Source: Geotalea uraniireducens Rf4 (lineage in GTDB: Bacteria > Desulfobacterota > Desulfuromonadia > Geobacterales > Geobacteraceae). From it: a stretch of 32,000 nucleotides of DNA. Below the pieces are notes generated by a model. That model was not told where the DNA came from. It saw nothing but the letters and a program-made list of their open reading frames with translations, and made no database searches. This document shows, one piece after another, positions 1 through 32,000 of this stretch (positions are counted from its first letter, which is position 1; each line of letters starts with the position of its first letter). The position numbers and the translations under genes were made by a program. The stretch covers positions 3,630,001 to 3,662,000 of the forward strand of contig NC_009483.1 of NCBI RefSeq assembly GCF_000016745.1, in the 5' to 3' direction.

Positions 1-575
1 GACGCCTTGCTCCTTCCACTGCATGCCCACGGAGGCCTGGGAGACCCCTATTTCCTTCCAGCGGACGACCTGCCGTTTCCCCTCCTCGTAGCGGACCCGA
101 TCGTCGGCAGGACACCGGCTGTTGTATTTCAGCTTTTCTACTGTTTTGTCTGCATCTTCCGTCGAATCCACTGCGATCAGTTGGCCGGTCAGCTTGGGAT
201 TCTCCTGGTGCGCTGTTTTTAGTACTCCATTGAGCGCGGCCAGAAGATTTCCCTCCCCATTATTGGGAATTACCATCTGAACCAGAACTTTGCCTTTAGG
301 TTTCTCATTCAGCAGGCTCTGGATTTGTTCGAATACCTGCTGTGCATAGACCGGGAAGCGCTTTTCCATCTCCCGCTCTTCAGAGCTGATGATGAGGCTA
401 CGAACTCCGTCCATTTGAACTTCAACTCCTTCTTTCAGGACATTGCTCATCTGGCAAAGGATGACCAGATGCCCGGCATACTCCGGCGCTCTGCCTTCCT
501 TAACATCGGCCGGTGCCTCCCAGACCGGCTTAAGCACCAAGGTTTCTTGATCCGCCGCTGCGCCGACCGTGCCCT
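1..575 (-). other. Gene D KR3, N-terminal structural part only (cut by the window edge)
   Basis: Collinear with the pre-Rossmann regions of KR1 and KR2: ...VLVQMVIPNNGEGNLLAALNGVLKTAHQENPKLTGQLI...VRYEEGKRQVVRWKE. Confidence 0.6.
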
Positions 576-3500
576 GCCCGCCTTCGAGTACCCGGAAAGA
601 GAGTCCCCTCATACGGACGCAAACGCTCCCGTTCTCATCGCATAGATCGACATCAACGTTGTTAGCCCTGCCCGCGGCTTCGCCGCTGTTGCCGGACCGG
701 ATCACTGCCCACATCAAAGAGGTGCAGCGCTGGAGAATTTCAAGCTGGTGCAGAGTAGACGGAACCATCGGTTTTGGCGCCGCCATGCTGGCAGGCTCTC
801 CAACGATCAGGAGTGAGGCCTGCATTGCGGAATCGAGCATGCTGGGATGCAGAAGGTAATGATCCTCTGTTTCTGAAATCGAGGAAGGCAGCGAGAGTTT
901 TGCAAGCACAGTAGTGGATCCTGCGTAGGCCCTCTCGATGCCTCGATGTCTCGCGCCGTACTCGCTTCCCATCGTTTTAAACGCATCGTAACACTGGGCA
1001 GAACTCAACTCCCGGTCGCACTCTGATTGCACGTCCAGGAGATTTATAACCGGAATATCCGCAACCGGACCGAACAGGGCACTGCCCTGGCTGTTGATAA
1101 TGGTCTCAGCGCTATGCTCTGTCGATTCGCTGTAAATCTCATAGCCAATCTCGCCGTTATCTTTGGGGAAAAGGCCGACATGCACCTGAACCGGTTGGCC
1201 GGTTACGGTAATCGGCCTTGCCCACACGATGTTTTTAAGGGAGATACCCTTCTGAGACGGGTTCCATGACCCCGCGGCCCGGTCCACTGCTGCCCGGGCC
1301 ATCTCCAAATAAGCCGCCACGGGAAGAATTTTCTCGCCGCTCACTGCGTGGTCCGCCAGGAAAAATTCCTCCCCGGTAAAGATCGAGCTGAACCTTTGCT
1401 CGGTCAGGTCCGAGGTGTTCTGGTGCAGCAGAGGGTGAATCGAATGTGCAACCGGCAGTAGCGCCGATGCGCCGGCGGTCTGGGCGATCTCCGGCACCCA
1501 ATACCGGTCTCCGGCAAAGGGATAGGTGGGAAGGCTGATCCTGTGAGGCTTGGCTGCACCGTACAACCTGTTCCAGTCAAAATTGAGTCCCTTGACCCAA
1601 AGATCCAGAAGGCGCGCGTACTTTCCTTTGCTGACCCAGGCGTCGATTGTTTTTGCCATGTCCTCATCGACGGCGTAAAGCCATGCACTGTCGTTATCCC
1701 TGTCCCGTTTAACATGCCCCTTATGAAGATGTTCAAGGTCACTCTTGCCATCCAGATACCCACTCAGTTTCTCTTCCAGGTCCTTGATGGACGCGACAAC
1801 CATTGCCAATCGTGCGTCCATGGCTTCACGGCCAACCTGCAGCGTGTACGCCGCATCTGCCAGATCGGCATCGCTGAATTGCCGTTCCTGGATCGCCCCC
1901 AGCAATCGCCGCGCCTGCTCCTCAAGCCGCTTTTCATTCTTCGCCGACAATACGACGATCGCCGGATGCTGTGCGCTGACCCGGACCGGGATCCGCTCCC
2001 CTCCCTCAGGGATGTATTCTTCGATTACCACGTGAGCGTTGGAGCCCCCGGCCCCAAAGGATGAAATACCGGCGATCCGCGGATATTCCCTGGTCTGGCC
2101 GTTAATCTCGACGACCGGACGCTTCCATTCGGCAAGTTGCTGTTGAACCACGAAAGGCGTGGTACTGAAATCTATGTTCGGGTTCAGCACTTCGGAATGT
2201 AGCGACGGAGCTAACTGGCGGTGCTTGAGCTGAAGCAGCACCTTCGTCACCCCAGCGATGCCCGCCGCGCTCTCGCAGTGCCCGATGTTGGACTTTGCCG
2301 AGCCGATGGAGCAGAACTGTTTTTCCTTGGTGTGTTCCTGGAAGGTCTTGGCCAAGCCCGCGATCTCTATCGGGTCTCCCAATGAGGTCCCCGTGCCGTG
2401 GGCTTCTATGTAGCTGATGGTCCGGGGATGTACCCCGGATTGCTGCAACGCCCGCCCGATGACGCTTGCTTGCGCATTCGGGTTAGGGACCGTGTAACCG
2501 TTGGTCTTTCCGCCGTGATTAATCGTGGACGCCTTGATGACCCCGTAAATCTGATCTCCGTCGGCAACGGCTTTCGCCAGAGGTTTGAGCAGCACCGCTC
2601 CCACGCCTTCTCCTGGGACATAACCATCTCCGCCCTCGCCAAAACTCTCGCACCGCCCTTTGCTCGATACAAACTTGCCTTGGCCGAGAAACATGTACTT
2701 ATTGGGATGGACCGAGACGTTCACCCCACCGGCGATCGCCACCTCGCAGCCGCCCCGTTGCAGGCTTTGACAAGCCAGATGGATGGCGGTCAGCGATGAA
2801 GAACACATGGTGTCCACTGCCATGCTGGGTCCATGGAAATTACAAAAATACGAGACGCGGTTGGCTATCGACGAGGGATTCCCAGCAAGGGCGAGCGGCC
2901 TGCCCTTTGCCGTTTCCTGGGCTCCATAGAGTTGGTACTCCTCGTACATTACGCCTACGTAGACGCCCACATTGCCTTCGAGGCCACCACCCTGATGCAA
3001 CCCGAGCGCTTCACGCGTATATCCTGCATTCTCCAGAGTTTCATACACGCACTGTAAGAAGAGTCGCTCCTGCGGATCCATAATCTCGGCTTCGCGCGGC
3101 GAGATATTGAAGAACAGCGTGTCAAAGAGATCCACTCCATCCAGGAAGCCACCCCATTTGCTGTTGGTCTTTCCCTGTTTGTTCTTATCGGCGTCGAAGT
3201 ACAGACTATGGTCCCAACGATCTTTGGGAATCTCGGTGATGCAATCTTTGCCGTCCCGAAGATTCTTCCAGAACTCCCCGAGGTTTCCTGCTCCCGGATA
3301 GCGCCCTGAAACACCGATGATGGCGATATCTGACACCTCGTTGGCCTTTTCCTCCCGCGCTGCAGCGCGAGACGCGAACCGCGAAGGTCTGCGGTTGCTG
3401 GCGACCGGCTGCGCGGGTTTTGGCGCGGCGACGGAATTTTGGGAAGTATCGGCAGCAGCTGTGGGTGTCTGCTCGATCTCCAGTAATCCCATCAACTGGT

Positions 3501-6500
3501 CTCGGTGTGATTCAAGAAAGTACCCGGACAGTGCCTGAATGGTCTGGTATTCGAAGAAGAGGGTTTTGGGCAGTGAACCGAACACTTTCTCCAATTCATT
3601 GGTCAATTGCAGCACCATGATCGAGTCGATGCCGTATCTTTCCATCGGGGCATCCACATCGACCCGGTGTGCAGGCAGTTTGATACCCGCTGCAACAAGC
3701 TTCTTGAAATAATCCGAGGCTTTGTCCCGAAGCGAATCCTGGGTGACCTCCGGGGCTACCCCGTTTTCAACTACCGGAGAGACGTCCTTGCGAAGCTCCG
3801 CGCGCGACGGCTGTGCAATGATCCCTGCTGTGACGCGTTGCGGGTCGCCGTCTATTACCATTATCTGGTTCTTGCCGCAGGCCAATGCCTGATACAAGGC
3901 AGCAATCCCGGTTGCTGTCGGCAGGGGGATCATTCCCCTGGTCTGCAGCATCATCTGGCGGGTTTCTGCATCAACCTGCATCCCCCCCTCTTGCCAGAGC
4001 GGCCAATTGATTGAGAAGGTTCTCCCCCGGCGTTCGTTTCTGGCCACCAGGTCGTTGCGATATGCCGCGTAGGCGTCCATGAAGGCGTTCGCCGCGGCGT
4101 AGTCGGCCTGACCGAGGTTGCCAGCCGCTGCTGCGGCCGAGGAAAAGAGAAGCACTAGGTCAAGCTCCAGGTGCTGGCTAGCCTGATCCAGATGAACCAG
4201 TCCCCCGACCTTGGGGCCGAGGACCTCCAGGAACTCTTCATTTGTCTTTTTGATGATAAAGCTGTCTCGTGTCACGCCGGCAGCATGGATGATGCCGTTG
4301 ATGCTTCCGAACTCCTCTACGAGAGCCTGAATGAGACCTGCTACGGCGTCTTTCTGGCTGACGTCGACCTGCTGGTACTCGACCCGTGCACCCGATGCTT
4401 CCAACTCCCTCAATTGGGCGCGCTTCACCTCACTCAAAGGCGATCTTCCCGTGAGGATGAGCGTTGCGCCGGTAACCCTATTGGCTATCTCCTTGGCGAA
4501 TATCAGTCCCAGGTTGCCGGCTCCACCCGTAATCAGATAAACACCACGGTCTCTCCACGGGATGCTGGCTTGTTCCTGAAACGAGGCCACTTCGCGCCAG
4601 CCGCAAACGAACCGCTTGCCGCCTTGATACCGAATCTGCTGATCCAGCGCGCTTCGGCTGTTCCCTTTCAGTTTCTCTACGATTGATTCTGAAGTCTCCC
4701 GTGTTTCCACCTCGATCAACTGCCAGCCGAAATTGGGATTCTCAAGCCGGGCCGTCTTTAAAAGACCCGACAGCCCGCCGAAGAGTTGCCCATCTCCCTG
4801 GCCGGAGAACACGACTTGAACGAGTAGCTTCCCTTTAGACTTGCTTCTGAGAACGCTTTGGATTTCCTGAAACGCCTGGAGCGCATAGTCGCCGAACCGC
4901 TCCCCTATGCCTTTTTGCTCCGAGTGGAAGGAAATGCAGCGCGCCCCGCTCATCAGCCTGGTGACCTCTTCGTGGGTTAGGTCATCCTGCCCGCACAACA
5001 GCACAAGATGTTCCGCCTGATCGGCTGCGGTAGCTTCTTCGGCAACGCTCTGCTCATTCCAGACCGGCTCAAGCATCACGGTGCCGATGGCTGTTGAAGC
5101 TCCGGGTCGGACCTCTCCGTCCAGGCCTTTCAATGACAATCCTCGCATCGTGACCCGCACTTTGCCGTGCTCGTCGCTCACATCGATATCGAGTTGTTGC
5201 ACCGAGTCGCCTGGCTTGCTCCCCTTGCCGTAGCGAATCAAGGTCCACATGGAGGGCGTGCAGGTACCGAGGACGTCAAGCTCCTGCAGGGCAAAAGGCA
5301 CAACGGGTTTGAGCGCGCCGCCCTGGTCCTGCCCTCGTATCAACCCGATCGACGCCTGCAATGCCGAATCCATCAAACTGGGGTGCAGGACATACTGCCC
5401 GTCCGTTTGGGAAACCGAATCCGGCAGGGACAGTTTGGCCAATACCTGCCCCACACCGACATATGCTTCCACGATCCCCCGATGTCCCGGGCCGTATTCG
5501 AAGCCCATCTGTAGGAAGGCCTCGTAGCACTGGCTGGAGCTTAGGCTCTCTTGGGTGCACTCTGCCTGCAAGGCCTCGATATCCAGGGTCGACGTCTCGC
5601 GAGTCGACAGGAACTCCGCTGCCCCTTGGCCGTGCACCAACGGCTCAGCGCCATTTGCTTGGGAGTCGCTATATATCTCGTAGGTGATCTCCCCGGTGTC
5701 GTTGGGGACCAGGCCGATGTGTACACGTACCGGCTGAGCGTCGACTGCAATGGGGCGAGCCCAGACCACGTTCTTCAGGCGTATCCCCGCCTTAGGTTCT
5801 TCCGCTCCTGCGGCTTGCTCCAGTGCCGCTCGTGCCATCTCCAGATATGCCACCCCGGGGAGAACCTTCCGGCCCCGCACCACATGGTCAGTGAGGAAAA
5901 ATTCCTCGCCGGTAAAGGTGGAACTAAAGCGCTGCTCGGAGAAGTCCGAGGCATTCTGATGCAGCAGCGGATGTATTCTCTGCTCCTGGTACTCTGGCTT
6001 TTGTTCTCTGGTTTCCGGTACCCAATAGCGCTCCTTGGTGAAGGGATAGGTGGGCAGACTGACGCGACGGGGCTTCGGGTCGCGATACAGCTTGTTCCAG
6101 TCGAACTGCTGGCCCCTCACCCACAACCCGAGAAGCCTGGAGTATTTTCCCCGTTCCATCCACTTCTCGATGGCTTCCTGTAACTCTTCATCCATCGAAA
6201 AAACTGACAAGGCCTCTTTATTGGGCTTGACTTGGCCTCGGTAGAGCTTCTCTATGCCTTCCCGACCCTCACAATACTTGGTCAGGGCTTCTGAAAGCTC
6301 CTGGACCGATTGCGGTATCAGCGCCAGGCGTTCCTCCATGGCGTCTCTGCCGACCTGGAGGGTGTAGGCGATATTGACGAGATCGGCGTCGGAAAACTGC
6401 CGTTCCCGGATCGCGGCCACCAGCAGCTGCGCCTGTTCCTTGAGCCGTTCTTCATTCTTCGCGGACAGCACAATGATGGCGGGATTCGGGGGGGCGATCG

Positions 6501-9500
6501 CAACATGAGGCTGATCCTTGGGAACGTACTCCTCGATTACCACGTGCGCATTCGCGCCGCCGAAACCGAACGAGCTTACGCCGGCCCGGCGCGGCAGCTC
6601 GTTGCCGTTTCCGTCGCGCAACGCCTTCCATTCCCGGTTTTCCTGGACGATGTAAAAGGGACTGTTCTCCAGCTGGATGTAGGGATTGACGACATCGCAG
6701 TGAAGGCTTTTGGCGAGGGTTTTGTATTTGAGCTGCTGAATGACTTTGATGACGCCAGCGATTCCGGCAGCGAGTTCCAGATGGCCGATATTTGTCTTGA
6801 CCGAACCCAATCCGCAATGAGCGCTGGTGACTTCCGGTTCTCCCGTCGCCCGATACAGCTCTTTAAAGGCAGCCTTGAGACCGTTGATCTCTATCGGATC
6901 GCCCAGCTCGGTGCCCGTTCCATGGGCCTCTATGTAGCCGACCGTCCTCGGATCGATTCCTGCCGTGGTATACGCTGACGTCAGCAAGTCGGCCTGGGCT
7001 ACGGGGTTGGGCGCGGTGAGCGAATTGGCGCGGCCTCCGTGGTTCTCGGCAGTTCCCCGTATTACGGCGTGGACATGGTCGTTGTCGCGCTCCGCGTCCT
7101 TGAGCTTTTTGAGGAAGAGCACGCCGACCCCCTCGCCCCGGGCATACCCGTTGGCCCGGTTCGAAAAGGTTTTGCAGCGGCCGTCTTCGCAGAGCATTCC
7201 GGCCTTGCTGAAGCTTAAGTGAAGCTCAGGAGAGACGATGGTATTAACTCCGCCGGCGATGGCCATCTCACAGGTACCGTCTTGCAGTACGGCGACTGCG
7301 CGATGGATTGCGACGAGGGAACTGGAACAGGCGGTTTCAATGGGTTCGCTCGGGCCGTGGATATTGAGAAAATAACTCATTCGGTTCGGCCCAACGGAAG
7401 CAGCCACCCCGGTGGCGGAATATGCTTCAATGGCTACCTTGGCCCGAGAAAGCAGCTCGCTGTAGCCGCTGGTCGCGGTTCCGGCGAAGATGGCTGTATT
7501 GGTTCCGGAAAGGCTTTGAGCCGAGTAGCCAGCGTCTTCTATTGCCTTCCAGACATGGGTCATCAGCAATCGCTGGTTGGGATCCATGATCTCGGCTTCC
7601 CGGGGAGAAATCCCGAAAAACAAAGGATCGAACTCGTCAACGCCGTCGATAAAGCCGCCACATTTGGCGTTAGTTTTGTTCGCTTCTTTCGCGGGATCGC
7701 CGTAGTAGCGCCGCCAATCCCACCGGCTGTTCGGGATCTCCGTGATGCAATCCCTGCCGTCCATCAGGTTTTTCCAGAACTCATCCACATCCGATGCGAA
7801 CGGGAACCTGCCACTCAATCCCACAATTGCCACGGGCTCAAACGAAGACGCAGACGGTTTCGCTACGGCTGGCGCAGCCGTCACCGCAAACCGTGGGTGC
7901 CGTCGTGTGCCAGGGGTGGTTTCTTCAGCCCGGTCCTCCTCGGCGCGCGCGGCAGCCTTAGTCTGTACCTTTGTCTGAACATTTGTCTGTGCTCCTAATG
8001 ATGAGCTAAAGGCTGAACTGTGTGCTTCCACTAGATATTTGGCAAAGCGGCTGAGGGTCGGGTATTCGAAGAAAACCGTCGGAGCCAGCTCGAGCTTGTA
8101 TTCCCGGTTGAGCGTGTTGGCAAACTGAGTCAAGCTGACCGAATCAAAGCCGTAATCATTGAGTTCGACATCGGCATCGATATCTGCGAGCTTTACTCTC
8201 AGTAATTCGGAAACTGCCTGCATCAAAATGGACAGCACTTTTTCCTGCAGGCTGCTGGAATCGATCTCAGACAAAGTACCTGATGCTACGGGAACGGTTT
8301 TCGGCTGGGCACCTGCGGGAGTCATCAAGGAGTCGAGTTTTTGTCTGATGCGGCCAAGCCTGCCTTCCATAACCAGGACTTGTCCTTTTTCGCTGGCCAG
8401 GCCCTGATATAAGGCGCGAATGCCGGTTGATGTCTGCAGGGGGATCATCCCCCAGGACTGCAGCATCATCTTCTCGGCATCAGGATTTACCTGCATCCCT
8501 CCTTCTTTCCATAAAGGCCAATTTAACGACAGCGCCTTTCCTCGTCGTTGTCCTACCTCTGCCAATTCATTACGATATTGCGCATACGCATCCATAAATC
8601 CATTCGCAGCAGCGTAATCCGACTGGCCGGCATTTCCCAACACCCCCGCCAAGGATGAAAACAACAATAGAACGTCCAACTCCATCCCGCTAATTGCCTC
8701 TTCAATCGCCATTAATCCTTTTATTTTTGGACGTAATACTTGCTCAACGTCCTTTCTATTCTTTTTTACTATATAGCTATCCCTTATCACTCCTGCACTA
8801 TGGATGATGCCATGTACCCTTCCATACTTTCCTACTACCTCCTTAATAAGGCTCTCAATTTGGTCATTATCCGTGACATCTGCCTGGTAGTACTTAACTA
8901 TCGATCCATTAGCTTTCAAGCCTTGTATTATGGACTCTTTATCGGGAGTCAGTTCGGACCTTCCTGCTAATATTATTGTGCATTCCTTCAAGTTCTCAAC
9001 AATGTCCCTGGCAAATATTAGACCTAATCCGCCAACGCCACCGCTTATCAGGTACACCCCTTTTTCTTTCCACGGCAATCTGGGTATTTCTCTGGCGCTT
9101 GCCAGCTCTCTCATTTCGGCTATCGACCTGTTGCCAGCTTTATACTTTATAGATTTCCCCGCTTCGCTCCGCGCGTTATCTTTCAGTATCTTTGTTACTC
9201 TCTCAGCATCTTCAATGTCTTCGAGCTCTATCATTTGCCAATCGATATCGGGATGCTCCTGCCGTGCTGTTTTGAACAGTGCGGCATGCCCGGCGAACAG
9301 TCGTCCCTCTCCCGTAGCGAATACTACGGCCTGAATCAGGACTCTTCCGGGCTTTCTTTTTACTATGCCTTGAATCTCTTCGAGTATCCCGACCGTGTAA
9401 TTTTCATATCTTTCATCGATCGGCACTCCATCTTTTCCGGGCCGCAACGTAATGACCCGCGATCCTTCCAGGCTTGCTACTATCTCCTTTTCCGTTGCCG

Positions 9501-10428: not shown

Positions 10429-10454
10429 AACTCCTCCGCTAGATCAGACATATT
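10414..10454. repeat. Direct repeat, downstream copy (contains the gene D SD and start)
   Basis: 31 of 41 positions are identical to 10750-10790. The perfect 17-nt core AACTCCTCCGCTAGATC lies at 10429-10445. Confidence 0.8.
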
Positions 10455-10745
10455 TAAAACAAGGGGTTGAATCGACACGTTTTGCGGCGTGAGGGACTGT
10501 TTTCGCCACGAGGACGGCCCCAACGGTTTCTTCGAAGCAATCGAAGCGGTCGATCAGCTGGCATTGGCTGTCTTGCCTGTATGCAGGGGCAGCGATTTTT
10601 GACCGAGCGAGCCTTTCAAGCGAGAACAGCGTGGGGCTTGTCCGTACATTACCAGGCCCGCGGGTGACGGAGTGGCAAATGCCAAGACAACCGTGAAAGG
10701 AACTATGCCGACGGGAGGTTTGATTAATCTCTTTCCACAACGTTA
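10429..10745 (-). other. 317-nt spacer between gene C and gene D, nature unknown
   Basis: This is the only sizeable non-PKS sequence in the window. I counted 160 G+C in 10441-10740 (53%), against 37-47% in the adjacent 60-nt lines. It is bracketed by the 336-nt-period direct repeat. Confidence 0.5.
10431..10437 (-). promoter_or_regulatory. Shine-Dalgarno of gene D (GGAGGAG)
   Basis: Minus strand reads GCGGAGGAGTTATG. This SD lies inside the downstream copy of the 41-nt direct repeat. Confidence 0.7.
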
Positions 10746-23600: not shown

Positions 23601-26600
23601 CCAAAGTGCGCTGGCCGCTCGACTTCAGATACAGTTCGGTCTTCTCGCTGTCCCCGATGCTCATCCCGCCGTCTTTCCACAGCGGCCAGTTGATCGCGAC
23701 CGCCCGTCCCTTCCGCAACCCCTGTTTTTCCAAACCGTTTCGATACTGCGTATAAGACATCTGGAAACGGTTGGCGATCGAGTAGTCGCAGGAGCCGAAG
23801 TCCCCAAGGATCGCCGCGGAGGACGAAAAGTAGCAGATAAAATCGAGCGGTTCCTCGCGAAGCAACTCGTCAAGGACCAGTGTCCCCGTGATCTTGGGAG
23901 CCAGCACTTTTTCAAACCGGCCCATATCCTTTTCCAGAACGCTCTGAATATCCTCGATGCCGGCCGAGTGAATAACCCCGTGGATCCTGCCGAACCGCTC
24001 TTGTGCGCGGTTCAGCCCTTCTTTCATAGCGTCCACGTCGCAGACATCGGCCTGGAGATACCAGACCTTGCTGCCGAGATCCTCAAGTGCTTGTATCCTG
24101 GACTTCTTCGCCTCATCGAGCGGAGATCGCCCGGTAAGCACTAGGTTGACGGGGTTCTTTCGTGCGAAATCGGCCGCGAACAGGAACCCGAGCCCCCCGC
24201 AGCCCCCCGTGATAAGATAGGTTCCGCCTGCTCTCACCAGGCTGACGCCCGGTTCCTGAAGGGTCGGCCGAATCCGGTAGGCATACCGCTTCCCGTCCCG
24301 GTACAAGATGCTGCGCACCTTGCCCCCCGCGTATTCGGCCCGGATCCTTTGTGCCCACGTCTTCATCTCGGCGGCCAGATCCCTCCCCGTAGTCTCTTCC
24401 AGAAGTACCGCGGTCTGAGTAGTCGGCAGGACCAACCCCAAGGACCGTTCGAATCCGATCCAGGACTCCAGATAGCAACGCTCCAGCTCGTTCCCGAACC
24501 GGCCAGCCAGCAGGAAGCGTCCTGTTTTGAGTTTTGCCGATGCAACGGCATGCAGAGTGGAGACTATCGAAGCATAATCGGTAATGCGCTCGGGGTCCTC
24601 GAGCGGCCAGAGATAGAGGACGGCATCGACGTCGCCATGCTCTTCCCGAATACTGCTGAAGGCTTCCTGGTACGTCTTCGGATCATGAAGACAGACGCGA
24701 TACCGGCTTTGGGATTGCTTTTCGTAGCCAGTCCCCTGGGATATAAAAATAACCGTGGTCTGCGGTATAGCTTCAGCAAAGAGATCCTGGCTTTGTGGAT
24801 CGGAGAGAAAACAGATTGCCTTTTTTAACTGTGCAGCAGGCGCGTTCGGCAAAGCGTGCTCTTGCCAGACCTCCTCGAACGTCATCAATTCGAACGGCTC
24901 CGGAGCGGCAGTTGCGGAGGCTTGCGCAAGTTGACTGATTGCATCGGCCGCAAAGGAAGGTTCGGTCTCCGCGCCGCTATACTGTATCCCCTTCATCCTC
25001 ACGCATACTCTTCCCGTTTCATCGCACAAATCGACGTCAAAGGCTTCCGCCTTGTTATCTGCCCCGCCACCCTCCGAATACCGGGCCCATGCCCACATCG
25101 AGCTGGTGCAAGGGGCAAAAAGCTCCAGGCTCTCTACTGAAGCAGGAAGCGCCAGCCTACAGGCAGCATCCCCGCAGCCAATGGTTGCCTGGAAGGCGCA
25201 ATCCAGCAGGGACGGATGAAGAACGTAGCGCTCCAGGGTATCGGACTGCCCCGAGGGAAGCATGAGCTTTGCCAGCGCTTCTTCAGAGCCCGCATGCATG
25301 CTCTCGATACCCCGCTGTCCCAGGCCGTACTCGATACCCATGGACCGGAAGGCCTCGTAGCACTGCTCGGCGTTCAGGGCACTCCGGCTGCACCGGGCCT
25401 GCAAAGCTTCGAGATCGACTCGGGGAGCTTCGCCCGCCGGACCCAGCAGCGCCGTTCCCCTGCTGTGCAGCAGCGGCTCCGTTTGGTTCCCTTCCGCCTG
25501 GCTATAGATCTCGAAGCCAATCTCCCCGCTGTCTTCCAGGTAGAGCCCGATGTGCACCTGCACCGGCTGGCCGTTGAGCGCTATCGGCCGGGTCCAGGCC
25601 ACGTTCTTGAGCCGTATTCCGGCGCCGCCTTCCTCCGTTACCGCAGCCTCTTCCACCGCCGCCCGGACCATCTCAAGGCACGCTGCGGCCGCAAGGACCT
25701 TCCCACCTGTCCCGACCGGCTCGTTCACGAAGAACTCCGCTCCGGTGAAGCTGGAACTAAAGCGCTGTTCGGAAAGGTTCGAGGTATTCTGATGCAGCAA
25801 GGGATGAATCTGGTGGACGGCATTGCCTGTCCTGTGTCCTTTGTCCGTCCGCGAAGCTCCGGTGTCAGGCACCCAATAACGCTCCCGCGCAAACGGATAG
25901 GTCGGCAGTTTGATCCTCTGGGGACGGTACTCTCCATAAAGCCGGCTCCAGTCCACGTCCATGCCGTTTACCCAGAGTTTGCCGAGTTTATGGAACATCC
26001 CCTTCTGCATCCAGGCTTCGACCGTGTTGAACATGTCGTCATCCGAGGTGAACATGTCGACGATCTCTTTATTCCGTTTGACCTGCCCGCGGAAGAGGCC
26101 GCTGACACCTTCCGTGCCTTGCACGAATCCCTTCAGTTTCTCCTTGAGTTCGTCGATCGATTGCGCGACCACGGCAAGGCGCGCGTCCATCGCCTCCCGG
26201 CCCACTTGCAGGGTAAACGCCAGGTCCGTGAGGTTTAGTTCGCGGCCGGATGCCGGTTGTGGCAACTTCGGCATATCTTCAGAATCCGCGAGAAGTTCGC
26301 GGTGCTCCAGGAGACTCGCGCTTGCCGCGGCGATGGAACTCCATTGACGCAGGTCGGCACCGTCGATCTCTATGGCGAGTTCATCTTGCAGGGCATCTTT
26401 GATCAGTTCGAGCTGCAGGAACTCGACCCCGTATTCGTTCCAGTCCTGTTCGATTTCCAGGTCTTCTTCCCGGACATGGATAATCCCGGACATGATGTTG
26501 CGAATCCGAAGCTCCATGGTTTTCCGCAGTCCCGACTCCCTTTCTCCTTGAGCCTGCCGCGGAAGACCGCCGTCGGGGGCATCGAGAAATTCGAGCAACC

Positions 26601-29286
26601 TCACGGCATAGGCGTGCAACCGCTCCTCGTTTTTCGCTGAAAGCGGGACCAGCACCTGTACTTGCTGGTACCCGGCTGCTGCCGGTCGTCCCGCTCCGGG
26701 GACATATTCCTCCAGTATGATATGGGCATTGGAGCCGTAGGCACCAAAGGAGCTCAAGCCTGCCCTTCGGGGATAGCTGACCTCACGGCCGTTTTCAGTA
26801 ATCCTCGGGCATCTCCATTGTTCTAGCGAGCGCTGTACATAAAAAGGCGACTTTTTAAAATCGATGTAACTATTCAATTCTTCAGCATGCAGGGAGGGGA
26901 CGAGGACTTTGTGGTGCAGTTGCAGAAGCAGCTTATGCAAACCGCTGATACCCGCAGCGGACTCGGCATGCCCGATGTTCGACTTCACCGAACCGATCGA
27001 GCAGTATTGCTGATCCTGAGTGTATATTCGATATGCTCTCGCCAACCCCTGTATCTCAATCGGGTCTCCCAGCGATGTTCCTGTCCCGTGTGCCTCGACA
27101 TAGCTTATGGTTCGCGGATCGATACCGGTTTTCTCAACGCAGGTCTCGATCATATCCGCATGGGCTATGGGACTCGGCACGGTGACCCCGCTGACCGCGC
27201 CCACGTGATTAATGGCACTTCCACTGATGACTGCATAAATATGGTCCCCGTCCTCAATGGCTTTGTGCAACGGCTTCAGCAAAACGGCACCGACGCCTTC
27301 CGCCGAGACGTAGCCATCTCCACCATTGCCGAAGGTATGACAACGACCGTCGCTGGAGTGAAAATCCATCACACCGTAGGTCAGATATTTATATGGATGC
27401 AGGGATAAATTCACGCCGCCCGCCAGGGCCACTTCGCATTCCCCGTTCTTGATGCTTTCCAAAGCCAGGTGCACGGCAATAAGCGAGGAAGAACAAACTG
27501 TGTCAACCGCTATACTCGGACCGTGGAAGTTACAGAAATAGGACACACGGTTGGCAATCAGGGCACAACTCAATGACAGGGGGAATACTTCTCCTCCATC
27601 CACGGCTCTCGCTTCGAGCAGCGTATAATCCTTGTGCATGACGCCAGCGAATACGCCGACGTCCCGTCTTTTATGCCTGCCTCGCGAGGCGACCAGTGAA
27701 CTCGGCGTGTAGCCCGCATCTTCAATGGTTTCCCAGCAGGTTTCCAGGAACAACCGCTCCTGCGGATCGAGTACTTCAGCTTCCCTCGGTGAGATTCGAA
27801 AAAACTGAGGATCGAAACAGTCCGGGTCGTCTAAAAAGCCTCCCCATTCCGACATCTTCTTTCCGGAAGGTGACTTTATGCCGTGGAGTCGATGCAGTTC
27901 CCACCGGGATTCCGGAACCTCGGTGATGCAGTCCATGCCCGCTTTCAGGTTTTCCCAGAACTCATCGAGGTTTTTTGCCTTGGGATAACGGCCTGCCATT
28001 CCGATGATGGCGACATCGCTGCGGGTTGCAGAGGGTGCATCGATCCGCGGGGCCGCTTTCGGTCTTGGTTGGGAAACGACGGGACTTGCTGCTTGGGTCT
28101 TTTGACTCGGCGTTTGTGCTGCCGGAGATTTCCCGAACGCGTCAGGATATGTGAGGAAAAGATATTCGGCTAATTCCCCGATGGTCGTGTACTCAAATAG
28201 TAGTGTGGGCATAAGCTGAACCGACAGCTTTTCACCGATCACAGCTACTACCTCAAGCAGCGTCGGGGAATTCAAACCCATTTCATAATACCCGACCTGC
28301 GTCGAAATCTGATCTGCCGGTTGTCCCAGTTTTTCCGCGACCAGCTGTTGTAAAAACAGCTCCGCCTGGCTGCCCCGGGTCGAACTCGTCCCACTCATTC
28401 GGTTCATATCCCCATTCCCGCTGGGTGCAATCGGTCCTTTGGATGTGGCGACATCCTTCCGAAAGGGGTCTATCAAACCGGCCTCTCTGACCAATTTACC
28501 GGCGTAATTCTTCAACTCTCCGATTCTTCTGCCGGACTCGTCGAAAAAAGTCATGGTCAGGTAATTTATCTCTTTTTTTCTGGATACCGGGTTTTGAATC
28601 AGCGTTAGGCACCGTTTTTTAAACAAGGCCCCGGCAGAAAACGATTCATAACACAGTGGTAAAAAGAGGCTCCGGGCTGCCTTGTTCAGGGGGTCGAACA
28701 CCACACCTGAACCAATCGCGCTTGCGTCGATGAGAACCGGGTGAAACATGAAACCCTCGGCACTGGAGAGAGCTTCGTCACCGAGTGATATGTCAATGAG
28801 CGTGCCTTTCTCGCCTTGGTACACGGTCCCTTCAGCCTTCATGAACCCGGTATGCACCAAATCAAAAGACCGGCACCGCTCGTACACTTCTCCCAGACTG
28901 AATACTCGGTCCGCCGTTTTTTTAATAAGCTCCAGATCCTGCGTCTCTTCCAGGGCAGGAGTGTCGACGCGATGCATCTCGGCGGTTATAAAGAGTGTCT
29001 CAACCGGGCGCGATTTTGACCGCGCTCCTTCCACCCGAATCCGCCACCGACCGGCCTTGATTTCCTCGCAGTAAATGCCGATCTCCAAGTCGTCCTCGTC
29101 CGGTATCGTCAGCGGATTATGAATGGACAGGTTGCGCAGTTCGAGCCCCGCGTAATCATGGCCATTTTCCCGGAACAATTGGTACAGCATATCGATATAG
29201 GCCAACCCCGGGAGCAACTTACGACCATAGGCGGCATGATTCCTTACTATCGGGTGGTTGGACGATATACGGTACTGATCCTGCAT
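14677..29286 (-). CDS. giant trans-AT polyketide synthase subunit (~4869 aa): DH-ACP-KS-DH0-KR-ACP-KS-DH-ACP-KS-KR-ACP-KS0
   Basis: ORF track 14677..29292 (4871 aa, GTG-initiated). Preferred start is ATG 29286 with GGAGG at 29294-29298 (7-nt spacer); GTG 29292 remains possible. It carries four KS active-site cysteine motifs ([33 protein letters not shown]), two Rossmann KR motifs and four GxDS-type ACP motifs. Confidence 0.93.
   Translation of the reverse strand: [4869 protein letters not shown]
14698..14705 (-). promoter_or_regulatory. Shine-Dalgarno of gene C (GGGGAGAG), inside the 3' end of gene B
   Basis: Minus strand reads GGGGAGAGTTTGATGCAAAAT. The ATG at 14693 overlaps the end of gene B by 17 nt. 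Confidence 0.6.
14870..16105 (-). other. Gene B KS0 (first His -> Asn)
   Basis: [21 protein letters not shown] (Cys 15637-15639), [13 protein letters not shown] (Asn codon 15232-15234), [11 protein letters not shown]. Confidence 0.8.
16210..16450 (-). other. Gene B ACP4
   Basis: [20 protein letters not shown]; the D-S dipeptide is encoded at 16339-16344. Confidence 0.8.
16560..18040 (-). other. Gene B KR2 (with structural subdomain)
   Basis: [12 protein letters not shown] (~17255-17295); [28 protein letters not shown] (~16775-16830). Confidence 0.8.
18558..19865 (-). other. Gene B KS3 (Cys-His-His intact)
   Basis: [22 protein letters not shown] (Cys 19336-19338), [36 protein letters not shown]. 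Confidence 0.85.
20040..20290 (-). other. Gene B ACP3
   Basis: [24 protein letters not shown]; the D-S dipeptide is encoded at 20161-20166. Confidence 0.8.
20370..21215 (-). other. Gene B DH (motifs intact)
   Basis: [59 protein letters not shown]. Confidence 0.85.
20680..21215. repeat. Dispersed nucleotide-level repeat, copy 2 (N-terminal half of the gene B DH)
   Basis: Partner of 5440-5975 at a constant offset of 15237 nt over the best-matching part. Confidence 0.75.
21753..23020 (-). other. Gene B KS2 (divergent motifs, triad residues present)
   Basis: [23 protein letters not shown] (Cys 22522-22524), [15 protein letters not shown] instead of [33 protein letters not shown]. Confidence 0.75.
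23170..23420 (-). other. Gene B ACP2
   Basis: [19 protein letters not shown]; Ser codon 23299-23301. Confidence 0.8.
23500..24960 (-). other. Gene B KR1 (with structural subdomain)
   Basis: [13 protein letters not shown] (~24187-24230); [21 protein letters not shown] (~23765-23830). Confidence 0.8.
24965..25810 (-). other. Gene B DH0 (DH fold lacking the catalytic His)
   Basis: [46 protein letters not shown] aligns with ...[22 protein letters not shown]. DH becomes EP (25717-25725 encodes NEP) and PG becomes AA. [13 protein letters not shown] is retained. Confidence 0.75.
26245..26580 (-). other. ~112-aa insertion in the KS1 flanking subdomain with a carrier-protein-like sequence that lacks the Ser attachment site
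   Basis: [76 protein letters not shown] occupies the position of xYGxDS. The insert lies between LLEFL and [15 protein letters not shown], which are about 10 aa apart in the other modules. Confidence 0.6.
26703..28020 (-). other. Gene B KS1 (Cys-His-His intact)
   Basis: [21 protein letters not shown] (Cys 27493-27495), [36 protein letters not shown]. Confidence 0.85.
28150..28380 (-). other. Gene B ACP1 (GLNS variant)
   Basis: [25 protein letters not shown]; Ser codon 28267-28269. Confidence 0.7.
28480..29286 (-). other. Gene B N-terminal DH-type hot-dog domain, partner of the gene A KS0
   Basis: [24 protein letters not shown] (HxxxGxxxxP present); [14 protein letters not shown] (Asp present, Q/H of DxxxQ/H absent); no HPLL N-terminal segment. 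Confidence 0.7.
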
Positions 29287-29288
29287 TT

Positions 29289-32000
29289 TCACACCTCCAC
29301 CAATCCGCGTTTCCAGACGCTCGTCTGGTTACCCGCTAGACAATTGTGTTTGAAAGACGCTTCGCGGCTCTGCATCGCAAGAGGAGCCGATGAACCGTCT
29401 TGATAAATTCTGATACGGCTCAAGACCGGAGCCGGCAGGGGTTGTCTTTTGGTACGGGACTCCGTGTCCCTCCACACCTCTACGATGACATGAGCGTTGG
29501 TGCCTCCGTCGGCGAAACAGTTGATCGCTGCAATCTGCGGCTGATCGGTCCACTCCCTTAGCTCCCTGCAAAAATAAAAGGGAGACGACTCCAGGTCATA
29601 GTGCTCCATGGGCCGCTCTCCCGACAGGAATGGAACAAACTGCCGGTGCTGCAGCATCAAAACGACCTTGATAAAGCTCGCAATGCCTTCTGCACACAGG
29701 GGATGCCCGATATTGGGTTTCATCGAGCCCAATCCCAGAGGAGTAGACCCGACGGCGCGGTACACGGATTGAATGGCCTTGAGTTCTAGCAGGTCGGTAA
29801 CCTCAGTGCCCGATCCGTTCGCTTCGAGGTAACTGATCTCTTCCGCCCCCCTGCCGCTCCTTTCCAGGGCAGTCCGCATGACCTCTTTCTGCGCCTGGAG
29901 GTTCGGAGTAGCCGGACCGGCTGTTCTCCCGTCGTTATTGACGGCAACCGCTTTTATCACCGCGTGGATGGCATCCCCGTCTTGAAGCGCCCGCTCTACC
30001 GTCTTCAGTACGAGCACGCCTGCCCCCTCTCCCAATACGGCTCCGGCAGAGCGCCGATCAAAGAGATGAAAGTGCGGTTCCGGGCTCAAAATGTTTCTTT
30101 GCTGAAAGATCCGGTGGTATCCGTCCGTGTTCAGGAGACTCACTCCTCCCACCAAGGCCGAATCTATATCCCCACTGTGCAAGGCCTGAATCCCCATATT
30201 CATTGCCAGTAGCGCTGAAGAACAGGCGGTATCTATCACCACGCTGGGGCCCCGGAGATCGAAAAAATGAGAAATGTTGGCTGCCATGAAGTTCTGCCCA
30301 ACCAGTGTCGGGTTTCGGGCTTTCTCCAAGACGGCGAGGTCGGGTCGGTGTTGACTTCGGGCGCCCACGTAAACCCCTACCGAGGTTCCTTTTATTTCCC
30401 GAGGCGCATATCCGGCGTGGCACCATGCCTTGAGGGTTTCTTCCAATATGGCCAAGGCTTGCGGGTCCATTGCCTTGGCATCTTCTTCGGGGATTAAAAA
30501 AAACGACGGGTCGAAACAGGTGATATCGTCGAGCAGTCCCGCATGGAAAGCATTCGAATACCCCCAACGCTCCCGAGGCACCGCCCGTATCGCGGAGCGT
30601 CCTTGTGATAGCAAGCTCCAGTATTGATCGAGCGTTTCCGCTCCGGGAAAACGGCAGGACAGTCCGATGACCGCGATATCCTGGGAAACCGTGCCCCTCG
30701 TGTGCTCGGACCGTGGTTGTGATTCGTGCGTCGGAGCATGAGTCAATGGCACCAGGGGGGGGGCAGGGGCTGCATCGCGGTTCGTGCGATCGGTGTTTTG
30801 TTCAGGCGCCATCCCCAAAGCCGAGGTTAACCTTTCCGAATAGGCGCCCGCGAGCCACACGCCGAGCGCCCCGAGGCTCGAATGCTCGAGGAGTAACGAA
30901 GGGTCCAGATTATCTTCCGTCAATCGGTTGATCTGCCTCAAGATCTGGGCCAGTAAAATCGAATCGGCACCGTAGTCCTGAAATGGTGTGTCGAGATCGA
31001 GTTTCGCGGGATCGGCCCTCAATTCTTTAGCGAACAGCTCGATCAGCCATGCCTGGATCGTCTTTATGACGCCTTCACCGGGAGTTGAGCTTTCTGCAGG
31101 GGCCGGAGCTGAGAGGATCTTTTCCTGGACGGTTTTTTGAACGGCCCGTCGCATCAAGGCGGGGGGATTCCATCGGCCGGGATCAACCACTGCAGGCAGA
31201 ATTACCGGACCTTGTTCCCCGGACAGGATAGCGTCCATAAGCCACAATCCCTCTTGGTCCGTATGGGCCAACAGGCCCGTCTGTTGATAGACCCTGCTCC
31301 GGATCTCTCCCATGCCTGACTCTTTCCAGCTCGGCCATTGAATGCTGACGATGGGACAGGCAGCATGCTTTGCTTCAGCGAAATAATCCATGTAGCCGTT
31401 CGCCGTGGCATAATCGCTTTGCCCCGAACCCAAAACAGGAACGATCGCGGATACCGAGGAAAAAAGCATGAAAAACTGCAAAGGCTCATTCCTTAAGTTT
31501 CGATAGAGAATATCGAGCCCGATTATTTTAGGGTCCAAAACATCTTGAATCCCTTCGATGGATTTTCGGATGAACGCCGGATTTTCAAAATCGGCGAACC
31601 CCGCGCAGTGGATAACGCCTCCAACAGGCCCCATGCTGTCCTTGATCTGGCGAAGGTTTTTCTGTACGCAGCGCTCATCGGTCAACGGAAGAGAGATCGC
31701 ACAGACCTGCGCTCCCCGGCGCTCCAGTTCCTGTATGGCTTGAATTTTTTCGGAGATGCCCCCTTGTCGGCCCTTATAGGAGTCCCACTCTTCCCGGGAC
31801 GGCAGTGGCTCCCGCCCGGTCAACACCAGACGTTTGACGCCGTAGTTTTCCAGGAAATGCCGCGCGCATAGATACCCCAGACCGCGCGTCCCTCCCGTAA
31901 TCCACAGGACATGATTCTCGGGGAAAATGATTTTCCTGCCGCCTTGAACCGAATGCTCCACGAGGCCGGCGCGGTATCGATTTCCTTTTCTGTAACAAAT
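29289..32000 (-). CDS. trans-AT polyketide synthase subunit, 5'-truncated by the window edge: ...KR-ACP-KS0
   Basis: ORF track 29289..31961 starts at a GTG, but the frame stays open to base 32000 (my translation ICYRKGNRYRAGLVEHSV...). That sequence matches the KR N-terminal region of other modules (IRYQGGKRF...), so the gene continues upstream. Motifs: WITGGTRGLG, GQSDYATANGYMDYF, YGADSILLAQ, DTACSSALL, EANGSGT. Confidence 0.9.
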   Translation of the reverse strand: MCYRKGNRYRAGLVEHSVQGGRKIIFPENHVLWITGGTRGLGYLCARHFLENYGVKRLVLTGREPLPSREEWDSYKGRQGGISEKIQAIQELERRGAQVCAISLPLTDERCVQKNLRQIKDSMGPVGGVIHCAGFADFENPAFIRKSIEGIQDVLDPKIIGLDILYRNLRNEPLQFFMLFSSVSAIVPVLGSGQSDYATANGYMDYFAEAKHAACPIVSIQWPSWKESGMGEIRSRVYQQTGLLAHTDQEGLWLMDAILSGEQGPVILPAVVDPGRWNPPALMRRAVQKTVQEKILSAPAPAESSTPGEGVIKTIQAWLIELFAKELRADPAKLDLDTPFQDYGADSILLAQILRQINRLTEDNLDPSLLLEHSSLGALGVWLAGAYSERLTSALGMAPEQNTDRTNRDAAPAPPLVPLTHAPTHESQPRSEHTRGTVSQDIAVIGLSCRFPGAETLDQYWSLLSQGRSAIRAVPRERWGYSNAFHAGLLDDITCFDPSFFLIPEEDAKAMDPQALAILEETLKAWCHAGYAPREIKGTSVGVYVGARSQHRPDLAVLEKARNPTLVGQNFMAANISHFFDLRGPSVVIDTACSSALLAMNMGIQALHSGDIDSALVGGVSLLNTDGYHRIFQQRNILSPEPHFHLFDRRSAGAVLGEGAGVLVLKTVERALQDGDAIHAVIKAVAVNNDGRTAGPATPNLQAQKEVMRTALERSGRGAEEISYLEANGSGTEVTDLLELKAIQSVYRAVGSTPLGLGSMKPNIGHPLCAEGIASFIKVVLMLQHRQFVPFLSGERPMEHYDLESSPFYFCRELREWTDQPQIAAINCFADGGTNAHVIVEVWRDTESRTKRQPLPAPVLSRIRIYQDGSSAPLAMQSREASFKHNCLAGNQTSVWKRGLVEV
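29294..29298 (-). promoter_or_regulatory. Shine-Dalgarno of gene B (GGAGG), inside the last codons of gene A
   Basis: Minus strand reads GTGGAGGTGTGAAAATGCAG. The gene A stop TGA (29291-29289) sits 2 nt before ATG 29286. Confidence 0.65.
29470..30685 (-). other. Gene A KS0 (condensation-deficient KS: Cys present, first His -> Asn)
   Basis: DIAVIGLSCRFPGA, DTACSSALL (Cys codon 30222-30224), YLEANGSGTEVTD in place of EAHGTGT (Asn codon 29817-29819), PNIGHPLCAEG. Confidence 0.8.
30755..30763. repeat. G9 homopolymer (C9 on the coding strand) in the Pro-rich ACP-KS0 linker of gene A
   Basis: accaggggggggggcagg on the plus strand; encodes ...PAPPLVP.... Confidence 0.9.
30860..31100 (-). other. 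Gene A ACP
   Basis: LDTPFQDYGADSILLAQILRQI; the D-S dipeptide is encoded at 30960-30965. Confidence 0.8.
31140..32000 (-). other. Gene A KR domain (N-terminal part may lie outside the window)
   Basis: VLWITGGTRGLG Rossmann motif (~31880-31915); SSVSAIVPVLGSGQSDYATANGYMDYFA (~31381-31430). Confidence 0.8.

Follow-up and report, generated by a model that had tools for sequence, protein, structure and literature searches.

The window analysed here, a stretch of 32,000 nucleotides (nt) from the genome of Geotalea uraniireducens Rf4, is filled by four co-directional genes on the minus strand, A to D, which together encode about 10.56k residues of a modular polyketide synthase (PKS). We consider it probable, at about 0.88, that these 32 kb form the middle of an orphan PKS of the trans-acyltransferase (trans-AT) class, comprising genes ABQ27263 to ABQ27260. 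Genes were called from stop-free frames, all the long ones of which lie on the minus strand; the antisense open reading frames (the longest of 837 aa) gave no matches in a Pfam search and were therefore dismissed as spurious by-products of composition. The ATG of B lies 2 nt past the stop codon of A, the start of C and the end of B overlap by 17 nt, and C is separated from D by a spacer of 317 nt. Protein C is 100% identical to ABQ27261.1 of this strain over 1315 aa, protein B is 100% identical to ABQ27262.1 (WP_011939929.1), and the 903 residues of A in the window are the exact C-terminus of ABQ27263.1 (1717 aa). The locus is already public as an annotated gene cluster of the complete Rf4 genome of 2007; the database labels of its genes are generic (for example, 'erythronolide synthase' or 'mycocerosate synthase').

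Domain content and class of the assembly line

Domains were called with Pfam and with hidden Markov models (HMMs) built from exemplars in the window. Gene A reads ...ketoreductase (KR)-acyl carrier protein (ACP)-ketosynthase (KS); gene B reads dehydratase (DH)-ACP-KS-DH-KR-ACP-KS-DH-ACP-KS-KR-ACP-KS; gene C reads DH-ACP-X-KS-(DH stub), where X is a divergent DH-fold domain; gene D reads DH-KR-ACP-KS-DH-KR-ACP-KS-DH-(KR start). The totals are eight KS, eight ACP, five KR in full and the N-terminal portion of another that is cut by the window edge at the end of D, and seven DH plus domain X. These numbers agree with the original prediction of four co-directional genes with about 10.5k residues and 8 KS, 8 ACP, 6 KR and 8 DH-type domains, provided that the truncated KR and domain X are counted; the figure of eight DH-type domains stands as a count, with the correction that one of them has lost its catalytic His and another is enoyl-isomerase-like.

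An acyltransferase (AT) embedded in the modules had been named as the finding that would speak against the trans-AT class, and the GHSxG motif of such domains had been reported missing. The motif is in fact found in none of the six frames of the window, and the AT family PF00698 has no match at E<=0.01 in the 10.56k residues. A flanking subdomain ending in LPxYPFxxxxYW follows six of the eight KS (among them LPTYPFTKERYWVP at D 1462 and LPAYPFARERYWTP at B 2668), and these subdomains give RhiE-like_linker and CurL-like_PKS_C matches in Pfam. The expectation that every KS would be followed by it fails for the two subunit-terminal ones, A_KS440 and B_KS4395, which carry instead short tails of 110-117 aa sharing the motif LPAPVL(S/N)(R/K); judging from their position and sequence, these tails may serve for dehydratase docking, with the DH at the start of the next subunit as the partner. 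In the alignment of all KS the catalytic triad is Cys-His-His in six of eight, and Cys-Asn-His in the same A_KS440 and B_KS4395 (hereafter KS0), which read EANGSGT and EVNGGGS at the motif where active KS carry EAHGTGT. Modules are split three times, at A//B, B//C and C//D, so that the split modules, KS0 domains and non-canonical domain orders that were put forward as hallmarks of trans-AT PKSs can all be recognized. Finally, in a PDB search with a single KS as a proxy (B_KS2091), the 13 best matches are all trans-AT KSs (7ZMA, PksL, PksJ, 'AT-less PKS'), followed by the hybrid nonribosomal peptide synthetase (NRPS)/PKS 4OPE and then, lower, by the cis-AT CurL, PikA and EryA. The absence of an AT, the flanking subdomains of AT-less type and the splits with their KS0 together support the trans-AT interpretation, and the structural matches of this one KS are in keeping with it.

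Both ends of the assembly line lie outside the window, as had been proposed, the upstream one by only the 814 aa (2.4 kb) of A that are missing beyond the right edge. Full-length A reads KS-linker-KR-ACP-KS0, its first KS, an active one, beginning at residue ~10, and since the genes 5' of A in three metagenomic relatives are of other kinds (rubredoxin, class-V aminotransferase, LpxD-like acyltransferase, regulator), the PKS genes appear to begin 2.4 kb past that edge. On this upstream side, in the ~5 kb 5' of gene A in the relatives, neither a loading domain nor an AT was seen.

Two features of the domains are additional to this scheme. The flanking subdomain of B_KS424 contains an ACP-like insert (PP-binding score of 23.2 bits versus a cut-off of 20.8) in which the phosphopantetheine Ser is replaced (GVEF), and around which the linker HMM match is split. 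The DH1485 segment of D (5357-5976) and the DH2692 segment of B (20594-21213) are ~77% identical at the nucleotide level in the 300 nt compared, and each aligns with the relatives' homologue of the other at 83% identity along 620 nt; as this is far above the identity of other domain pairs, an internal duplication or gene conversion is suggested by the sequences.

Table 1. Coordinates of genes, domains and junction features, in the window unless a contig of a relative is named (L003 and L006 are the same ENA contig)
Feature	Position	Strand	Remarks
Gene A	32000..29292	-	903-aa C-terminal portion of 1717 aa; N-terminus beyond window edge; ABQ27263.1
A, KR	31215-31910	-	
A, ACP	30855-31040	-	
A, KS0 (A_KS440)	29622-30683	-	
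A, tail	29292-29621	-	
Gene B	29286..14680	-	4869 aa; ABQ27262.1 / WP_011939929.1
B, DH	28507-29265	-	
B, ACP	28159-28353	-	
B, KS (B_KS424)	26887-28017	-	flanking subdomain with ACP-like insert
B, ACP-like insert	26320..26508	-	B ~927-989
B, DH0 (B_DH1160)	24961-25809	-	KS-DH0-KR-ACP module
B, KR	23512-24225	-	KS-DH0-KR-ACP module
B, ACP	23191-23385	-	KS-DH0-KR-ACP module
B, KS (B_KS2091)	21928-23016	-	KS-DH-ACP module
B, DH (DH2692)	20365-21213	-	KS-DH-ACP module
B, ACP	20056-20247	-	KS-DH-ACP module
B, KS (B_KS3142)	18730-19863	-	
B, KR	16612-17289	-	
B, ACP	16231-16425	-	
B, KS0 (B_KS4395)	15031-16104	-	
B, tail	14680-15030	-	
Gene C	14693..10749	-	1315 aa; ABQ27261.1
C, DH	13866-14681	-	
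C, ACP	13548-13742	-	
C, domain X	12714..13487	-	C 403-660; DH-fold after ACP, before KS; candidate enoyl-isomerase
C, KS	11520-12653	-	
C, flanking subdomain	10854-11519	-	
C, DH beta1 stub	10749-10811	-	IHPLLHENISDLAEE...
17-bp direct repeat, copy 1	10765..10781	-	GATCTAGCGGAGGAGTT; encodes DLAEE(F) of DH stub
C/D spacer	10429..10745	-	317 nt, non-coding, splits DH
17-bp direct repeat, copy 2	10429..10445	-	GATCTAGCGGAGGAGTT; adjoins ATG of D 5'; GGAGGAG = Shine-Dalgarno
Gene D	10428..1	-	first 3476 aa; C-terminus beyond window edge
D, DH	9619-10422	-	without beta1
D, KR	8350-9060	-	
D, ACP	8032-8226	-	
D, KS (D_KS864)	6700-7839	-	
D, DH (DH1485)	5113-5976	-	
D, KR	3835-4545	-	
D, ACP	3517-3708	-	
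D, KS (D_KS2366)	2197-3333	-	
D, DH	580-1440	-	
D, start of next KR	1-579	-	
Low-GC block	8478..18555	-	GC3 ~0.48 versus 0.68-0.72 on either side; KR-ACP-KS0//DH-ACP-EI-KS//DH-KR (EI, enoyl-isomerase)
C//D split, L003	13930-14560		
C//D split, L004	4100-4510		
C//D split, L005	28510-29160		
C//D split, L006	28255-28905		
C//D split, L007	36230-36885		
MITE-like element, L003	14245-14495		
MITE-like element, L005	28841-29091		
MITE-like element, L006	28585-28835		
MITE-like element, L007	36563-36813		
MITE-like element, L011	6234-6484		

Predicted chain assembly and product

KS-KR-ACP stands before each KS0, and the next protein opens with DH-ACP. The arrangement is present twice, as A(KS-KR-ACP-KS0)//B(DH-ACP) and as B(KS3142-KR-ACP-KS0)//C(DH-ACP), and the DHs of both keep their His and Asp. 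Since this is the definition given in PMC8456789 for the type A dehydrating bimodule (KS-KR-ACP-KS0//DH-ACP, split after a Cys-Asn-His KS0 that merely passes the chain on, and associated with Z double bonds), we read both as split type A dehydrating bimodules. Among the remaining KS, B_KS2091 is atypical in its motifs (TAACSS, AHSTGS) and belongs to a module that has a DH without a KR; it is possibly non-elongating, as judged from the missing KR alone. Six Cys-His-His and two Cys-Asn-His KS thus allow at most six elongations in the window, possibly five.

All the DHs except B_DH1160 (and domain X) keep the His, Asp and YGPxF-type motifs. In B_DH1160 the catalytic His is changed to Pro and LPG to LAA (NEPVGTGGKVLAAAACLEM), such that NEPVGTG..LAA stands where DHxxxG..LPG is expected. 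The domain matches ordinary trans-AT DHs in the PDB strongly (E=1.9e-83 to 5J6O and E=1.3e-118 to 7ZMA) and the branching didomain of RhiE, 4KC5, in the linker only (E=2e-4); a branching (B) domain was ruled out on this basis, and the same likeness leads us to read B_DH1160 as an inactivated DH. The next module is KS-DH-ACP, without a KR and with an intact DH, which would compensate for the dead one.

Domain X, which is conserved in 10 homologues, retains the His of the QDH motif and has lost the catalytic Asp position: HPxLxD becomes DPLLLN (Asn) in the consensus sequence of the aligned homologues and ADSRLLK (Lys) in the present sequence, with H41 and D196 invariant throughout the alignment. 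Its AlphaFold2 (AF2) model is a double-hotdog (pTM 0.74), and Foldseek comparisons give TM scores of 0.63-0.76 to PKS DH and EI structures, values that do not separate the two types. The best sequence match in the PDB is the EI domain of PksR from the bacillaene line, 4U3V, a weak one (E=0.005 over 78 residues). On the strength of this match, the motif changes and the model, a role of domain X as an enoyl-isomerase that shifts a double bond is plausible.

A possible course of assembly can be outlined from these elements. A discrete AT encoded outside the window would load extender units onto the eight ACPs. The KS-KR-ACP module of A would extend and reduce the chain, and its terminal KS0 would pass the beta-hydroxyacyl chain to the DH-ACP that opens B, for a dehydration of the type that gives a Z double bond. 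Extension and reduction would follow on the KS-DH0-KR-ACP module of B, whose own DH lacks the catalytic His, with the missing dehydration provided by the subsequent KS-DH-ACP module. The second type A bimodule would then operate across B and C, after which the DH-fold domain of C, in which only the His is kept, may convert the newly formed double bond into a beta,gamma one; C_KS, D_KS864 and D_KS2366 would each be paired with one DH-KR-ACP set. Every KR has a DH partner, in keeping with the pairing and the polyene-like chain of the original prediction; its figure of six elongations is reasonable as well, as an upper bound and not as the minimum. NRPS modules, methyltransferase, enoyl-reduction, tandem ACPs and beta-branching signatures were not seen in the window. 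The predicted product segment is therefore best described, from domain composition, as an unmethylated and unbranched polyene built by 5-6 malonate extensions, with about six double bonds, one of which is possibly shifted.

Several points weigh against the reading of the window as the centre of a trans-AT line with this product. The ~5 kb 5' of A in the relatives, where rubredoxin, aminotransferase and LpxD-like genes are found, contain no free-standing AT. No loading domain is seen and gene A opens with a KS, so that the true first module may lie elsewhere; colinearity, and a start that follows gene order, are assumed. The stereochemistry and the polyene are predicted by rule. B_KS2091 retains its Cys-His-His triad, and the enoyl-isomerase call rests on a weak match (E=0.005) and a generic DH fold.

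The rival explanation that survives best, although we rate it as unlikely, is that the locus belongs to the family of glutarimide polyketides (migrastatin, cycloheximide or gladiostatin type), in which case the window would begin within, or just past, the conserved block of glutarimide-forming modules. The A/B architecture, KS-KR-ACP-KS0//DH-ACP-KS, is one that we take to resemble the first modules of glutarimide PKSs, and the DH-fold domain that comes after the next KS, B_KS424, lacks a catalytic His. As described above, however, this domain matches ordinary DHs, with RhiE aligned in the linker only, and what comes after it is a KR with one ACP, not the tandem ACPs that are typical of glutarimide branching modules. 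No branching domain and no amidotransferase were seen in the window, nor an amidotransferase or a loading ACP within ~5 kb 5' of A in the relatives, and it is on these two absences, of the branching domain here and of the amidotransferase there, that the low rating is founded. The literature adds a further point in favour of the glutarimide family, and hence against the reading that we prefer: glutarimide PKSs have been predicted in Geobacter (Helfrich et al. 2021, PMC7930024), a statement repeated in PMC10574677; PMC7930024 names no Geobacter species, however, and its supplements gave no match.

The divided dehydratase and variation among relatives

The C//D junction falls inside a DH domain. 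Protein C ends with the first strand of the DH (IHPLLHENISDLAEE...), and protein D opens at the next conserved segment (KFRSCLKGNESFLKDH); in the nearest homologue from outside Geotalea (P0003, 52% identical) the KS-DH region is in one piece, and the split is conserved in all the relatives. The divided DH keeps all its catalytic motifs. Exact copies of a 17-bp direct repeat (GATCTAGCGGAGGAGTT; 2 matches, with 0 expected by chance) flank the spacer. We considered the spacer as a gene, because it holds a 105-aa frame in phase with D, and rejected this since the frame has no Pfam match and indels in the relatives break every frame; we likewise rejected an RNA, as there is no Rfam match and no promoter-like site, and a single terminator-like site on the opposite strand occurs at about the rate of chance. 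In relatives the spacer contains an element of 246-251 bp that resembles a miniature inverted-repeat transposable element (MITE), with inverted ends TAGTTTCCATCCGGAAAC ... TTTCCGGACGGAAACTA and a predicted folding energy of -108 kcal/mol; it is absent in Rf4 and in the Logan contig L004.

The composition of the genes is not uniform. G+C content at third codon positions (GC3) forms blocks of 0.60, 0.72, 0.48 and 0.68, with change points at residues 870 and 3577 of B and ~650 of D (window 26676, 18555 and 8478); the last two have a delta logL of ~41 each. Both change points in B fall where a KS ends in its C-terminal NAH..EEY motif, so that the upstream edge of the low-GC block lies directly past this motif, and both coincide with the post-KS site of a duplication found in one of the relatives, as described next. 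Divergence is uneven as well: dS (synonymous divergence) to the relatives is 0.20-0.22 for A to C and 0.05 for D, with a step at the C/D spacer (window 10458), and nucleotide identity to metagenomic relatives is ~92.5% for A to C and ~97.7% for D. The position of this step points to a recent recombination covering gene D.

Two metagenomic contigs differ from Rf4 by whole blocks of modules. In the first (L007; JGI 3300029959 Ga0272380_10002303), the homologue of B has 7569 aa (9617-32326) as the result of a tandem duplication that repeats every 8106 nt, with 100% identity along 8066 of them. Present in two copies is the block linker-DH0-KR-ACP-KS-linker-DH-ACP-KS, and its junction, at the C-terminal GGxNAH..EEY of a KS, has a hybrid sequence of its own. 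An assembly loop is an unlikely origin, because the parental sites are 71% identical, with exact matches of <=15 nt in Rf4, and the junction is hybrid; on the sequence evidence this is probably a very recent natural duplication of a block of modules, an assembly artefact being less likely. In the second (L011; JGI Ga0074193_1000088, a contig of 167.7 kb; 15439-22385) gene D is complete, with 4133 aa, and is 97.5% identical to that of Rf4 up to the LPTYPFAGxRYWVPE of the last KS (window ~1480), after which divergence is full: past the breakpoint this contig continues as KR-ACP-KS0//DH-ACP-EI-like-KS, where Rf4 has DH-KR. In a metagenome scan with the C-terminus of D, all matches other than this one are at <=55%.

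That the cluster might instead be decaying, pseudogenising and non-functional is very improbable: the stop codon and spacer inside a DH, the His to Pro change in B_DH1160, the degenerate Ser-less ACP-like insert, the compositional patchwork and the MITE-like insertion in the C/D spacer of relatives could all be cited for it, but the ratio of nonsynonymous to synonymous divergence (dN/dS, versus one metagenomic relative) is 0.17-0.23 for all four genes, D included, which indicates purifying selection, more than 10,500 codons contain no internal stop, the remaining catalytic motifs are preserved (among them, in the split DH, His, Asp and YGPGHRG), four independent metagenomic or read-assembly contigs, each from another sample, share the fission and keep the start codon and Shine-Dalgarno sequence of D, and the dead DH is compensated, in our reading, by the DH of the next module.

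The assembly line looks recombinationally mosaic, and appears to be changing still in close relatives. The place just past a KS is where the breaks in composition, the exact tandem duplication and the module swap are all located. This post-KS boundary is the one now favoured by PKS engineers for the exchange of modules. The mosaicism and the variants of the relatives fit the view, presented in PMC7930024, that trans-AT PKSs evolve by exchanging blocks of modules, a process made visible here among near-identical genomes.

A joint reading of these observations is that the C//D junction is a natural split-domain docking device and the locus a case of combinatorial biosynthesis in wild populations; we offer it tentatively, with the odds in our estimate against it. 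In its first part, a 0.3-kb insertion with a 17-bp duplication of target type could have cut the DH past beta-strand 1, the GGAGGAG in the duplicated DLAEE codons could have been taken over as the ribosome-binding site of D, and the HPLL strand on C could complement the DH of D in trans, holding the two subunits together. In its second part, variants of polyene length and structure could arise by recombination at post-KS sites, among relatives that are 90-98% identical in the DNA they share. As a trans-AT PKS locus the cluster is ordinary, and a lead for genome mining insofar as it encodes a large line of polyene type in a metal-reducing anaerobe; more unusual are the evolutionary side observations, which provide a compact and natural example of the ways in which such lines evolve, with a catalytic DH that is divided over two genes and yet stays under purifying selection.

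Comparison with known systems

The best non-self homologues are 50-68% identical among the matches listed, and belong mostly to Firmicutes (Paenibacillus, Bacillus, Pelosinus) and to metagenome-assembled genomes. A scan of genome contigs with protein C returned relatives at 61% and 34% only; a search with residues 1-1250 of D gave nothing above 68%, and three homologue searches no protein longer than ~2300 aa, in both cases among the matches listed. In the full-text literature searched there was no product, no mention of the accessions and no description of the cluster, and the earlier statement that the locus is not assignable to a known pathway therefore holds. The cluster is a publicly annotated product-orphan that belongs to an established class of enzymes, from a genus whose chemistry is described as poorly understood (Helfrich et al. 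2021, PMC7930024).

The closest parallels are with the Bacillus lines for bacillaene (pks/bae), difficidin (dfn) and macrolactin (mln). These too have AT-less modules, split type A bimodules (KS-KR-ACP-KS0//DH-ACP), runs of DH-KR modules that lead to polyenes (predicted in our case), and a DH-fold domain of enoyl-isomerase type, the counterpart of which at C 403-660 has its best match in the PksR EI domain mentioned above. The closest solved KS and DH structures are those of PksL, PksJ, MlnB/D and the difficidin line, and several homologues are named PksL or PksN in their sources. Against this likeness, identity is just 37-68%, the window is devoid of NRPS modules, methyltransferase, tandem ACPs and beta-branching signatures, and the host is an anaerobic metal-reducing species of the Desulfuromonadota. 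To our knowledge the module order corresponds to none of the bacillaene, difficidin or macrolactin lines.

A second parallel is the orphan cluster BGC11 of Brevibacillus brevis (K3DAK4, bimodule core, 7ZMA/7ZSK; PMC9491710), which is the top PDB match both for the KS-linker-DH region (E=1.3e-118) and for KS2091 (E=4e-220), and shares the domain order KS-flanking-subdomain-DH-KR-ACP-KS. In 7ZMA, however, the catalytic His of the homologous DH is present (FFLSDHVIKGQRVLPSAAYLEM), where B_DH1160 has NEPVGTGGKVLAAAACLEM. As BGC11 is also an orphan, it does not help with the assignment of a product.

Finally, the KS//DH junctions of the gladiolin PKS, which carry a dehydratase-docking tail (cited in PMC8456789), have a parallel in layout at A//B and B//C, where a KS0 with its tail is likewise followed by a DH on the next subunit. 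The C//D junction differs from this type, in that the full flanking subdomain and the first strand of the DH are carried by the upstream protein.

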